Origin: Candidatus Aenigmatarchaeota archaeon
GTDB taxonomy: Archaea > Aenigmatarchaeota > Aenigmatarchaeia > GW2011-AR5
Assembly: GCA_039091535.1 (NCBI GenBank)
Contig: JAWCLW010000001.1
Span: 11,881-75,880 of the forward strand
Direction: 5' to 3'
Length of the DNA stretch: 64,000 bases
Made by a program: the position numbers and the translations under genes
Notes under the pieces: generated by a model
The model's database searches: none
Seen by the model: only the letters and a program-made list of their open reading frames with translations
Told to the model about the DNA's origin: nothing
Part shown: positions 3,642 to 54,442 of the stretch, one piece after another
How the letters are laid out: each line of letters begins with the position of its first letter
How positions within the stretch are numbered: the stretch's first letter is position 1

Positions 3642-3772
3642 CCCCTGATAGCTCAATGGTGCAACAAAATGCATTAAAGAGCGCGTGGCTGTAGACGAGC
3701 TCTATTGAGCTTGTCACCAGTAGGTGCTCGGAAATTACCATGAGGTTGGGAGTTCGAATCTCCCTCAGGGGA
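3642..3772 (+). tRNA. tRNA-Tyr (anticodon GTA) with C1:G72 pair and two predicted introns (about 16 nt in the D-loop, 42 nt at 37/38)
   Basis: Acceptor cccctga/tcagggg+A73 (C1-G72 is the archaeal Tyr identity pair); U8 A9; D stem gctc...gagc separated by 24 nt; anticodon stem cgtgg/ccatg enclosing ctGTAga plus 42 extra nt with a cgagc/gctcg helix; T arm gggag-ttcgaat-ctccc. Confidence 0.75.
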
Positions 3773-41779: not shown

Positions 41780-42643
41780 ATGATGAAAATAGAAAAGTTA
41801 GACAAAAAATTAAAAGAAAGATTACGAGAATATTTGATGCAGGACTTTAGTAAAAATGCGATTTATCTTTATGATTTAGATAAAGAATATCCAAAGAGAG
41901 CTGATTTTTCTGTTTTGTTACAAAATGAAAAAATAAAAGGATTTAATGTTATTTGGATGGATAATCCTAATTTTTGTTATTTACATATCATAGCAGAAGA
42001 CGAAGAATCTTTCTTAGAGTTACTTAAAAATTCCAAAAGTCATCTTGAGAAGGCAAAACGTCTTATTATATCATCAGAATTTTCATCGATATTGGAAAAT
42101 GAATTCAGTCTTGTTGGTGATCATATGAATTTAATGTCTCTTACTAAAGGTAATGAAAAATTAGAAATAAAACATCCTGTTAGAAGATTGCAACATGAAG
42201 ATTTACCATATATTATAGAACTCTTAAAAGAAGGCACAAATTTGTATGTTAAAGATAATGATGTGAGAAATGGTATTCTTAAATCAGTTGAAAACTCAAT
42301 TGATAAAGGGTTATTTTTTGGTTGTTTTATTAACAATGAATTAGTATCTTTTATTCGTACTACAATATCATATCCACCGATAACTATGATAGATACACTA
42401 TATACGAAAAAAGTTTTGCAAAGAAGTGGGGCTGGTCAATCTGTTACATCTGGTTTAATTAAAGAATTGTTTTATAATAGAAGCGAGTTTAATGAAATAC
42501 AATTATATGAAGAAAAGAAAAATTTACCAGCCTTCAATCTTTATACTAAACTTGGATTTAAGGTACTAAAAGAATATATAAGATACAATATAACAGGCAT
42601 TAGTTTCAATTGTCGGTATTATTTATTATTAGGGGGTCTGTGA
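41780..42643 (+). CDS. Two-domain GNAT-family N-acetyltransferase
   Basis: C-terminal GNAT signature (LQRSGAGQSVTSGLI...AFNLYTKLGF); N-terminal domain unclassified. Confidence 0.65.
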   Translation: MMKIEKLDKKLKERLREYLMQDFSKNAIYLYDLDKEYPKRADFSVLLQNEKIKGFNVIWMDNPNFCYLHIIAEDEESFLELLKNSKSHLEKAKRLIISSEFSSILENEFSLVGDHMNLMSLTKGNEKLEIKHPVRRLQHEDLPYIIELLKEGTNLYVKDNDVRNGILKSVENSIDKGLFFGCFINNELVSFIRTTISYPPITMIDTLYTKKVLQRSGAGQSVTSGLIKELFYNRSEFNEIQLYEEKKNLPAFNLYTKLGFKVLKEYIRYNITGISFNCRYYLLLGGL

Positions 42644-42728
42644 GGGCGTGGAAATTATATAATTAATTACTATTAAGTTACAGTATATAGAAAGGTTTAT
42701 AAAGTTTTGAAGAATACTTATTTAAAGT

Positions 42729-43395
42729 ATGATAGATAGGAGCAGATTAGAAGAATTGTTAAGCGAATTGTTAGATGGACATGAAATAAATCCATTTTCA
42801 TTAGATTTTTATTCTAAATAGCCCAAGAGCCACTGCGGATTCTATTAGGCAAGTTCACACTATTCTTAGAAGATATGGGTTAACTAATGAGAAGATAGCG
42901 TCACAAGCTCAACTGCTTGGAAGAGATCCGGAAACTATTGAAAGAAATTATCAGAGTTATGTTGGACTATTAAGACAAGATATTCGTCTGATATACCCTG
43001 ATGTCATCAGCCGTTCCAAAGAAGAAATCAAACAAATGTTAAGAAGTCGTGAATACAGAAGTTCTGGAAAAGATTTACTAACTAACCAAGCACAACTACT
43101 AGGAATACCGCCTGAAACGATAGAAGCAAACGTTCAATATCTCAATTCAATTGGGATAGATTATAAGAATGTTTTCTTGTTGGGAACAAAACCACAAACA
43201 AAAAGACAAAAAATGGCTTGGATGTTAAGAGAATTATTTGATTACAGAACTCTCCCATATGAAGAAAGAAAAGACGCAATTGATGGTTTATACGATTTCG
43301 TAAGAAACGATTCTACAATTTTAACCAGATCCATTAAGTATCTGGAAAGAAATAGAGATAAATTAAGAGAAAGAGTTACGCAATATAGAAGATAA
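42729..43395 (+). pseudogene. mTERF-repeat protein gene interrupted by a frameshift at a T5 run
   Basis: Frame 0 ORF MIDRSRLEELLSELLDGHEINPFSLDFYSK* ends at 42819; frame +1 continues without a start codon through two about 33-aa repeats (SQAQLLGRDPETIERNYQSYVGLL / NQAQLLGIPPETIEANVQYLNSIGI) typical of mTERF motifs; the region is GC-richer than its flanks. Confidence 0.45.
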
Positions 43396-43688
43396 TTTCC
43401 GATCCGACCCCCATTTTTCTATATAGTGCCGAGAACTCAAAAATTTTCCTGCGGAACGTTGCACTAAATTTTTGCCGTTCGGGACACTTTGTAGAATTTT
43501 TTTCTTTAACGAAGATACTGTATAATTTACTAATATTTTTTTATATTATACCTCGCTTTCTTTTAAAGGATATAATTCAAATTTTTAATTAATTTTTAAT
43601 CCTATAGATTTGTTCATTATAGAAAAATCTGTTAAAATTAGCTTTGAATTGGCTCTTAGATTTAAATATTTAATCTTAAAAATAAATT

Positions 43689-44090
43689 ATGAAACTAAAA
43701 GGTGTATATATTTTATTAATTAGTATTGCTAAAGATATACGAATAAATATAGGCTCATTAGGAAAAATAAAATTTTCTGCAGGTAATTATGTATATGTTG
43801 GTTCCGCACAAAATAATATTATGAAAAGAATTGAAAGACATAAATCAAAAACAAAAAATAAATTTTGGCATATTGATTATTTGCTTGATAGTAAATATGC
43901 AAAAATTTTAAAGATATTTTACAAGGAATCAAAAAAATCTGAAGAATGTAGAATTGCAAATAGATTATTAAAAAATGAAATTTTAATTAAAAATTTTGGT
44001 TGTTCTGATTGCAATTGTAAATCGCATTTATTCAAAATCAAAAACATAAAAAATATTTTGAAATTAGGTATGAAAATTTATAAATGGTGA
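43689..44090 (+). CDS. DUF123 (GIY-YIG superfamily) protein
   Basis: KGVYILL...GSLG...AGNYVYVGSA...HKSK...KFWHIDYLL pattern. Confidence 0.65.
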   Translation: MKLKGVYILLISIAKDIRINIGSLGKIKFSAGNYVYVGSAQNNIMKRIERHKSKTKNKFWHIDYLLDSKYAKILKIFYKESKKSEECRIANRLLKNEILIKNFGCSDCNCKSHLFKIKNIKNILKLGMKIYKW

Positions 44091-54076: not shown

Positions 54077-54132
54077 TTTTTTGAATCGAGATAAAGAAAA
54101 ATCCAACAAAATATAAAAATTGTTAAAAAAAG

Positions 54133-54442
54133 ATGCGAGGGGTCGGAATTTCTCAGATCCACAATATTTGATGAAGGCCTTCTATTTCTTTTGGTATATA
54201 AAAACCCTCTTTACCAAACAATGGATCTGTTTTGAACCGACGAACGGATTTGTCCAAAACGTTGCTTTGCAACGTCGCTGTCTAACCGACAAGGTCTCTT
54301 AATAAAGCGACATATATTTACGTTATTTTTTCCTACTTCTGAGCATCGCCTCAGCCCTAAGCTTCGCCTTGACCAATCTTGCGCCTTTGACCAATCAAGG
54401 AAACCGTTTCAAAAGAAACGGAACTGACTTGGCTACCCTCGC
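54133..54442. ncRNA. GC-rich highly structured RNA candidate (~310 nt), unclassified; strand unresolved
   Basis: Local GC far above the ~28% background; termini can pair (gcgaggg 54135-41 with ccctcgc 54436-42, then gtcgg with ctgac); internal helices cagatcc/ggatctg, acgttgc-ttt-gcaacgt, ccgtttc-aaaag-gaaacgg, gtcgct/agcgac; TATA-like atataaaa ~20 nt upstream; SRP helix-8 and RNase P CR-I consensus motifs were not found. Confidence 0.45.

Follow-up and report, generated by a model that had tools for sequence, protein, structure and literature searches.

mTERF proteins are present in animals and plants, and a 2026 survey reported their absence from fungi and prokaryotes (PMC12977773). Absence from prokaryotes is also stated in a passage of a further publication (PMC7826268). 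In literature searches, no published account of archaeal mTERF proteins was found. Integron gene cassettes and attC sites, in contrast, have been reported in Archaea (Ghaly et al. 2022, PMC9668308). Here, a gene that touches on both systems is described. It lies in a stretch of 64,000 nucleotides from a Candidatus Aenigmatarchaeota archaeon (assembly GCA_039091535.1, contig JAWCLW010000001.1, positions 11,881 to 75,880), which is called the window in the following. After repair of a one-base frameshift, the gene encodes a short protein that resembles mTERF proteins, and copies of a structured repeat are found on both sides of it. The best explanation overall is probably a short DPANN mTERF-like gene that is derived from a cassette and has been inactivated by the frameshift. 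The interest of the locus is the protein family and the cassette-boundary repeat behind it, not the probably dead gene itself.

The gene, its protein and the family

Two open frames lie between the gene of a GNAT acetyltransferase (41780-42643) and that of a DUF123/GIY-YIG protein (43689-44090). In frame 0, ATG 42729 opens a stretch of 30 codons that is closed by TAG 42819-42821. In the +1 frame, no stop interrupts the sequence between 42802 and TAA 43393-43395, and there is no ATG, GTG or TTG upstream of 43036, which corresponds to codon 103 of the repaired protein. The frames overlap at a run of five T residues (T5) at 42806-42810, where the initial annotation had placed a +1 shift within the gene of a protein of about 220 amino acids. 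Both the run and the shift are present, and deletion of one T from the run yields a protein of 221 amino acids in which ...NPFSLDF is joined to ILNSPRATADS.... The unrepaired sequence gives the 30-amino-acid peptide and, at best, also a C-terminal fragment of 119 amino acids from ATG 43036. The locus consists of the following features:

42586-42644, minus strand: partial, hairpin-less inverted copy of the structured repeat ('B-type' module; covariance model R1, 19.2 bits, E = 0.014)
42689-42704, plus strand: archaeal-type promoter AGAAAGGTTTATAAAG, which recurs before family genes elsewhere
42729-42809, plus strand: 5' part of the mTERF-like gene, first 27 codons (MIDRSRLEELLSELLDGHEINPFSLDF), which align with the N-termini of intact homologues
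42806-42810, plus strand: T5 run with one T in excess relative to the family, by which the coding frame is +1 downstream; homologues read D-W/F-I-L-N-S unbroken here
42811-43395, plus strand: 3' part of the mTERF-like gene, 194 codons and TAA, identified as an open frame and by homologue alignment
43400-43505, plus strand: full 'A-type' copy of the structured repeat (covariance model R1, 97 bits, E = 1.3e-19)

The 3' part of the gene encodes a repeat (residues 50-80), an insert shared with the homologue P0059, a second motif (118-141) and a conserved C-terminal module (KRQKMAWMLRELFDY). A search with the repaired protein retrieved 117 clusters (90% identity) at E <= 0.01, and the protein is 45-70% identical to 47 members from end to end. 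Its closest homologue, from locus L001, shares 63% identity. The family is defined by an N-terminal cap (...FSxDWIxNSxxAT...), at least one repeat of 31 amino acids and the C-terminal sequence LLGTxPQxKRxKMAWMLRELFDY, all of which are found in the window protein. Basic residues are conserved at K55, R72, K158, R159, K161 and R167.

The repeat unit, GLKDDKIASQAxLLGRDPETIERNYQRLSAL, matches one to seven times per homologue, and its copy number is the main difference among homologues. Among 139 unique full repeats of 31 amino acids, the positions that vary are 10, 12, 16/17, 26/27 and 30. In the window protein, one unit is good and the other degenerate. The motif xQAQLLGxxPETIExN, which had initially been described as part of two repeats of about 33 amino acids, does occur twice (residues 58-75 and 118-135), but the copies are spaced by 60 residues and are not tandem 33-mers, the unit being 31 amino acids long. 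A separate N-terminal helix-turn-helix (HTH) domain in the longer homologues was considered and rejected; the extra length consists of more repeats, and the HTH matches include no single stretch that passes. At the DNA level, the near-identical tandem repeats of 93 bp evidently break short-read assemblies: about 21 of the 53 loci found in species genomes are cut inside the gene by a contig end, and a run of N lies within the repeats of L008. Repeat numbers in metagenome-assembled genomes (MAGs), possibly also that of the window, may be underestimated.

With the Pfam profile mTERF (PF02536), which the initial annotation had proposed for the repaired open reading frame, the repaired protein reaches no more than 11.8 bits (E = 0.11), against a gathering cut-off of 23.1. 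Family-level evidence is therefore needed for an assignment to mTERF. Matches to PF02536 at E <= 0.01 are obtained for 16 of 20 homologues, and several members are above the cut-off: P0121 (81.6 bits), P0059 (79.3), L051 (79.3) and L052 (75), and also P0118 (51.4), P0104 (49.5), P0029 (29.1), P0003 (28) and P0004 (27.3). Short members with one repeat, such as P0047 and P0051, stay below it. An AlphaFold2 model of the repaired protein, built with 48 sequences, has a mean predicted local distance difference test score of 90.8 and is all-helical, with about six successive three-helix units. In a Foldseek search of the PDB with this model, ranks 1-18 are all occupied by mTERF proteins (MTERF4, MTERF3, MTERF1 and mitoribosomal mTERF-like subunits), and the best template modelling score is 0.59, to MTERF1, over 229 columns. 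In addition, the family profile matches human MTERF1 (5crk) in the PDB with E = 0.009, ranked after designed 31-residue toroid repeats. Tandem helical motifs of about 30 amino acids (two alpha helices and a short third) and a superhelical solenoid fold, both characteristic of mTERF proteins, are found in the family. Organellar targeting is inapplicable because the host is an archaeon, as seen from Dph6, Rrp4 and an intron-containing tRNA. From the sequence comparisons and the predicted structure, we place the family in the mTERF superfamily, with the window copy as a short, sub-threshold member. The mTERF likeness noticed at first sight is upheld at the level of the family and its fold.

A scan of GTDB species genomes yielded 53 family loci (L001-L053), several genomes being multi-copy. 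These loci are from MAGs of Nanoarchaeota, Woese-, Pace-, Aenigmat-, Micr- and Parvarchaeota, with a few doubtful labels and one Promethearchaeota MAG. A profile search of 1.84 billion cluster representatives retrieved only 293 proteins (50% identity clusters) at E <= 1e-3, and the large eukaryotic mTERF families were not among them. Judged by these searches, the family is small, coherent and well separated from the eukaryotic mTERF families, and it is native to and widespread in DPANN archaea. The phyletic oddity that had been pointed out is real when set against the literature, but it is a general property of DPANN archaea and does not speak for a recent import into this genome. A protein of 526 amino acids from locus L051 (3307-4887), which scores 79.3 bits on Pfam mTERF, is encoded on a contig of a Promethearchaeota (Asgard)-labelled MAG; if this is not contamination, it bears on the origin of eukaryotic mTERF proteins.

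The promoter AGAAAGGTTTATAAAG contains a TATA box, TTTATAAA, at 42696-42703, which ends 25 nucleotides before ATG 42729. Family genes of L034, L004, L011, L030 and L045 are preceded by the same promoter sequence at equal distance. Its putative role as a promoter is suggested by the general architecture of archaeal promoters, and the distance of 25 nucleotides between TATA box and ATG would imply a leaderless mRNA. A further motif, (A)GT(A/G)GTAACA, is found about 10 nucleotides upstream of the transcription factor B recognition element and TATA box of family genes in several genomes (L004, L008, L011, L030, L034, L045); in the window (42672-42704) the corresponding sequence is AAGTTACAGTA. This motif may function as an operator or, more generally, as a promoter-proximal element.

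The region 42650-43530 had been singled out as a GC-richer islet. The guanine plus cytosine (GC) content of the window is 29.6%, that of the region is 0.326 and that of the mTERF-like gene 0.334, to be compared with a window mean of 0.295 (sd 0.035; z 0.9-1.1). The reference for genes is 0.299 +/- 0.035 over 49 genes, of which 9 are at least as GC-rich as the mTERF-like gene. The impression of an islet arises because the neighbours are very AT-rich: the DUF123 gene has a GC content of 0.206, the lowest of the window genes, and the spacers have about 0.2. What holds of the claim is that third-position GC content (GC3) and codon choice are at the atypical edge. With a GC3 of 0.23, the gene narrowly exceeds all others of the 50 genes compared (z = 2.0), and its synonymous codon likelihood is the lowest of the 50 (z = -3.8). 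With the amino-acid sequence fixed, codon usage still deviates (z = -2.67, p = 0.005). The gene is mildly atypical in composition and does not form an islet. The non-coding stretch 43396-43495, with 43% GC, is a real compositional outlier, as local spacers typically peak at 0.21-0.41 in 100-nucleotide windows.

Two other readings of the family and its origin have to be weighed against this evidence. If the repeats were a generic helix-turn-helix or other helical array, the mTERF likeness would be a repeat artefact. Numerous weak Pfam HTH matches do add up over the repeats, and designed toroids with 31-residue repeats are what the profile matches best by sequence in the PDB. However, not one HTH stretch passes alone, long single-stretch matches above a curated cut-off are obtained for mTERF only, and the top of the fold search is taken exclusively by mTERF proteins, which makes such an artefact extremely improbable. 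The same degree of doubt applies to the transfer of a eukaryotic or organellar mTERF gene into the archaeon, where it would now be decaying as a GC-rich foreign islet. The absence of mTERF from prokaryotes in the literature (PMC12977773) and the slightly atypical GC3 and codon choice fit a transfer. Yet all close relatives are from DPANN archaeal MAGs, the profile yields only the 293 clusters without the large eukaryotic families, the overall GC content is at z of about 1, and the archaeal-type promoter is common to other DPANN copies.

The single-base frameshift

More than 100 intact homologues read through the shift point in a single frame, and in full-length members of 190-260 amino acids the junction reads FS(L)DWILNSPRAT. 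In the window, the downstream frame is open for 198 codons after the shift, for which the chance probability at this composition is about 7e-8. The invariant columns of an alignment of 48 sequences are all satisfied, and only the shift site has F in place of W. An apparent insertion of 22 amino acids (DIRLIYPDVISRSKEEIKQMLRSREY) is colinear with the intact Aenigmatarchaeota protein P0059, and is therefore a feature of a subfamily and not a sign of decay. Relative to the family, the mTERF-like gene has exactly one lesion by these comparisons.

The accuracy of the surrounding assembly bears on the nature of this lesion. The window contains 898 A/T runs of at least five, and no second split gene was found among its approximately 60 genes. 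Five suspicious pairs of adjacent open reading frames turned out on checking to be separate full-length genes, and the mTERF-like gene alone among the window genes has a long start-less open stretch before its first start codon. Since no other frameshift is seen despite the 898 runs, the assembly looks accurate, which favours a genuine mutation. A second frameshifted family member was found in L011 (4001-4695), from the Aenigmatarchaeota MAG JZ-2_201705_bins_163; its shift of one nucleotide lies between ...KIAN and KHICLEE..., a position that differs from that in the window. In the metagenome scan, the DNA of the shift site (T4 or T5 allowed) had no match. Nor did identical sequences turn up for the downstream open reading frame of 119 amino acids or for the Dph6 protein.

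On balance, the frameshift is probably a real inactivation. From the sequence, we read the window copy as a very recently inactivated gene in which a T4 tract at codon 27/28 has gained one T, so that translation would stop after 30 residues. The window copy is probably dead, and hence of small direct biological weight.

An error of one base in a homopolymer during assembly would look identical, and this counts against the inactivation. A sequencing or assembly error in the fifth T, with an intact gene and a functional mTERF-like protein of 221 amino acids, is less probable but has to be taken seriously. It would agree with the single lesion, the conserved promoter, the retention of every invariant residue and the 198 codons that are still open. 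Family genes are also prone to assembly problems, as seen from the approximately 21 of 53 loci that end at a contig edge and from the N run in the repeats of L008. The shift site, however, lies outside the repeat region that hampers assemblers, no further frameshift is present in about 60 genes with their 898 runs, and the flanking repeat copies are degenerate too, consistent with a decaying region. Much further down in probability is recoding, in which a slip on UUU-U, either of the ribosome in a programmed +1 frameshift or during transcription, would restore the full-length protein and regulate its level. Perfect re-pairing of tRNA-Phe is possible after a +1 slip on U-UUU-U, and the downstream frame is wholly preserved. 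Against this, the shift site is not conserved, as the compared homologues all encode D-W/F-I in one frame; the 0-frame A-site codon is the common UAU, which is neither a stop nor rare, and the 0-frame stop follows three codons on. A T5 run is also short for polymerase slippage, and L011, the sole other frameshifted member, is shifted elsewhere in the gene. A programmed +1 site of the prfB type, with its conserved slippery site and a stop or hungry codon in the A site, was rejected for the same reasons, the homologues being single-frame and the A site UAU.

Boundary repeats and cassette arrays

The A-type copy at the 3' side of the gene is built of CGAT, CCGACCCCC and T5, followed further on by GTGCCGAGAAC, and includes a hairpin at 43438-43475 and a small hairpin, GCCGTTCGGG. 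The larger hairpin carries an invariant bulge, ACGTTGCACT, at 43457-43466. The 3' part of the copy has diverged, and no ATATAAC...GTTATAT palindrome comes after it. The B-type copy on the other side reads, on the plus strand, ATATAAC-AGGCATTAG-TTTCAATTGTCGGT-N-GGGGGTCTG-TGAG, and this module resembles CCGACCCCCTAATAATA...GCCGACAATTGAA of L001 and L075. It overlaps the last approximately 19 codons of the GNAT open reading frame. This reading frame extends about 19 codons past its Pfam domain into the partial repeat (ending ...NCRYYLLLGGL and stop), and the C-terminus of the GNAT protein is probably supplied by the repeat copy.

Short blocks of the 3' stretch are 100% identical to sequence beside family genes in L001, L030 and L034, and a pattern scan of metagenome contigs gave 25 additional repeat copies. 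In an alignment of the repeats, the blocks CCGACCCCC, GTGCCGACAAC and ACGTTGCACTAAA are invariant, a hairpin of 8+4 bp has compensatory changes in 8 of its 12 pairs, and a small UUCG-type hairpin is present. The 'aaattttt' tracts that had been seen in 43396-43530 are indeed there, and two of them are the opposite strands of one covarying stem. The imperfect inverted repeat cggaacg/cgttcgg that had been proposed for the same stretch was right in that both sequences are present, but they are parts of two separate small hairpins. A search of Rfam 15 gave no match at E <= 10 for 43300-43750 and none at E <= 1 for five related loci, and ARAGORN found no tRNA in the 3' element. A window-wide repeat search found no other copy of the element, and the covariance model finds the two copies only.

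Sites in which the repeat is combined with an attC-like palindrome were observed in metagenome contigs L054-L078, and also in L001, L030 and L034. Downstream of the A copy, the metagenome contigs carry an imperfect palindrome of 91-171 nucleotides, which consists of ATATAAC, A, an 8-bp covarying stem, the returning strand of the stem after an intervening stretch, 3/4 nucleotides and GTTATAT. This palindrome is often followed by an inverted B module. In related loci, 12 ATATAAC...GTTATAT sites with covarying stems were counted. Seven contigs have two or three full copies, with co-orientation in 9 of 9 cases. The layout B (minus), one small gene, A (plus) is found in 16 other loci with a spacing of 399-760 nucleotides, like that of the window. 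The enclosed genes are unrelated and include PIN/AbrB pairs, phosphatase-like proteins and many unknowns. L001, with the closest homologue of the window gene, is at the edge of such a cassette-type array. Canonical attC geometry with spacers of 5/6 nucleotides was tried and gave 0 sites, and a geometry of 1 nucleotide versus 3-4 nucleotides was found to fit.

In four loci, XerA-like tyrosine recombinase genes lie about 60-700 nucleotides from repeat sites:

L054, 7335-8120: XerA-like recombinase gene, adjoining repeat sites
L071, 10889-11710: XerA-like recombinase gene, adjoining repeat sites
L074, 3541-4332: XerA-like recombinase gene, adjoining repeat sites
L066, 85-441: XerA-like recombinase gene, adjoining repeat sites

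With NF040815, which has a cut-off of 220 bits, these recombinases reach 201-210 bits; with the integron-integrase model TIGR02249 they reach 186 bits, its cut-off being 265. The match to TIGR02249 falls into two stretches, which suggests that they lack the IntI-specific insert. In addition, an IS200/IS605-family TnpA (133 bits) is encoded in L034/L064, at 773-1249 of L064 as oriented along the element, about 240 nucleotides from a repeat copy, and is followed downstream by an open reading frame of 237 amino acids without a family match.

In the window itself, a site with inverted cores and a foldable palindrome at the 3' end of a cassette, as in attC, was not found, and a relaxed site pattern gave three low-complexity chance matches. 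The window neighbourhood contains no integron integrase of the IntI type with its additional domain. On the left side, an ATATAAC half-site fused to the B module (42588-42644) is the only remainder. We read the window sites as probable relics, the right one without its palindrome and the left one a fused stub. With relic boundary repeats on both sides and an atypical codon choice, arrival as a mobile DPANN cassette with subsequent decay is plausible. This acquisition from a DPANN donor is, in our estimate, about evenly balanced between right and wrong. Horizontal acquisition followed by decay had been suggested from the beginning; this can be kept in the form of a mobile DPANN cassette, but a eukaryotic source is unsupported, and the 'decay' of the reading frame amounts to one extra T.

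Several observations weigh against the combined picture of a cassette-derived mTERF-like gene. Taken by themselves, the inverted modules beside the gene do not stand out as an inverted repeat (z = 1.0), and the score of the left copy is no more than 19 bits. Around the family genes of 28 other loci, inverted repeats did not reach significance either. What carries the argument from flanking repeats is conservation across genomes, not self-complementarity. No tyrosine recombinase gene is present in the 64-kb window, and 22 of the 25 metagenome repeat copies are not beside a family gene. One other gene equals the codon deviation (-2.69). At the level of the protein, the window copy is itself under the Pfam mTERF cut-off, the Foldseek E-values are modest (best 2.6e-3), and nucleic-acid binding and the nature of its target are purely inferred.

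Taken together, the locus would be a single-gene unit with its own promoter and a short member of an undescribed DPANN branch of mTERF proteins. The gene may have been brought in as a mobile cassette, with another DPANN lineage as its source, and would now be immobilised and decaying. The intact protein is predicted to be an all-helical solenoid with a conserved N-terminal cap, three-helix repeats of 31 amino acids and a conserved basic C-terminal module. Complexes of MTERF1 with DNA and of MTERF4 with rRNA have been solved, and by analogy the DPANN proteins would most likely bind specific double-stranded DNA or a structured RNA, with the inner face of the superhelix as the contact surface. 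As a possible role, a roadblock or termination factor or a factor in RNA handling is proposed.

A wider and rather improbable idea is that DPANN mTERF-type proteins are modular, sequence-specific nucleic-acid binders whose target length is set by the number of repeats and whose genes are mobile as cassettes. They might then act on the boundary repeat, with its CCGACCCCC modules and ACGTTGCACT-bulge hairpin, for example as transcription insulators or as accessory factors in cassette recombination of the XerA-like type. If this were true, the 'eukaryote-only' mTERF fold would have originated in archaea. Most repeat copies have no family gene adjacent, so that a specific partnership of protein and repeat is speculative; a functional link between the repeat and family genes as a general rule was rejected on the count of 22 of 25 metagenome copies without a family gene nearby. 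The family bears on the origin of the mTERF fold, and its small, repeat-variable archaeal proteins could serve as simple models of nucleic-acid reading by mTERF solenoids. The DPANN cassette arrays, with their unusual attC-like sites and XerA-like recombinases, would extend the knowledge of archaeal integron-like systems.

The surroundings of the locus are those of an archaeal segment, with genes for Dph6 (diphthamide synthase), exosome Rrp4 and Endo-dU and an intron-containing tRNA. The window neighbours (GNAT, DUF123, Dph6 and others) are not found near family genes elsewhere. The DUF123/GIY-YIG-like gene at 43689-44090 shares 7 nucleotides with the start of the Dph6 gene. A tRNA match of 131 nucleotides at 3642-3772 (Rfam, 47 bits), for which ARAGORN made no call, is presumably an intron-containing archaeal tRNA. 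The GC content of the spacer 54077-54432 is unusually high, at 0.38 with a peak of 0.49 near 54332. No Rfam match at gathering level was obtained, and the repeat model fits weakly, through its hairpin alone, at 54262-54278; the spacer may be an unannotated RNA.

Comparison with known systems

The family profile finds its best PDB sequence matches in designed left-handed toroids, dTor_9x31L and dTor_12x31L and their derivatives (4yxz, 5byo, 8v2d), with which the family shares a 31-residue helical repeat of the pattern GL..D..I...A..LGLDP..I. These proteins are artificial and so uninformative on function. TALE, PPR and PUF proteins are also built of tandem helical repeats in variable number with few variable positions per repeat, but the variable positions of the DPANN repeats form no clear di-residue code, and the resemblance is conceptual only.

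The related contigs are like integrons in that single genes without relation to one another alternate with co-oriented imperfect palindromes, which have inverted heptamer ends (ATATAAC/GTTATAT), covarying inner stems and asymmetric bulges, and in that tyrosine recombinases annotated as 'XerA / integron integrase' are located nearby. The core consensus of attC sites is RYYYAAC/GTTRRRY. The heptamers fit this canonical consensus at 6 of 7 positions, whereas the spacers of 1 nucleotide versus 3-4 nucleotides are non-canonical, and the sites in the related contigs carry the conserved A and B modules in addition. Unlike in integron cassettes, the genes in the related contigs have their own promoters and are often reversed, and their recombinases are under the curated cut-offs. 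The window holds relic pieces of this arrangement only, without a recombinase.

The closest described proteins are the mTERF proteins (human MTERF1, MTERF3 and MTERF4, and those of plants; PF02536), in which three-helix repeats of about 30 amino acids are likewise stacked as a superhelix. The window copy differs from the eukaryotic proteins in being short (221 amino acids), sub-threshold in Pfam and frameshifted. As a whole, the family belongs to DPANN archaea rather than to organelles, and it is too dissimilar in sequence for its profile to find the eukaryotic members. Its repeats, 31-mers that are almost identical, vary in number between homologues, and it has its own N-terminal cap (FSxDWIxNS) and C-terminal module (KRKKMAWMLRELFDY).

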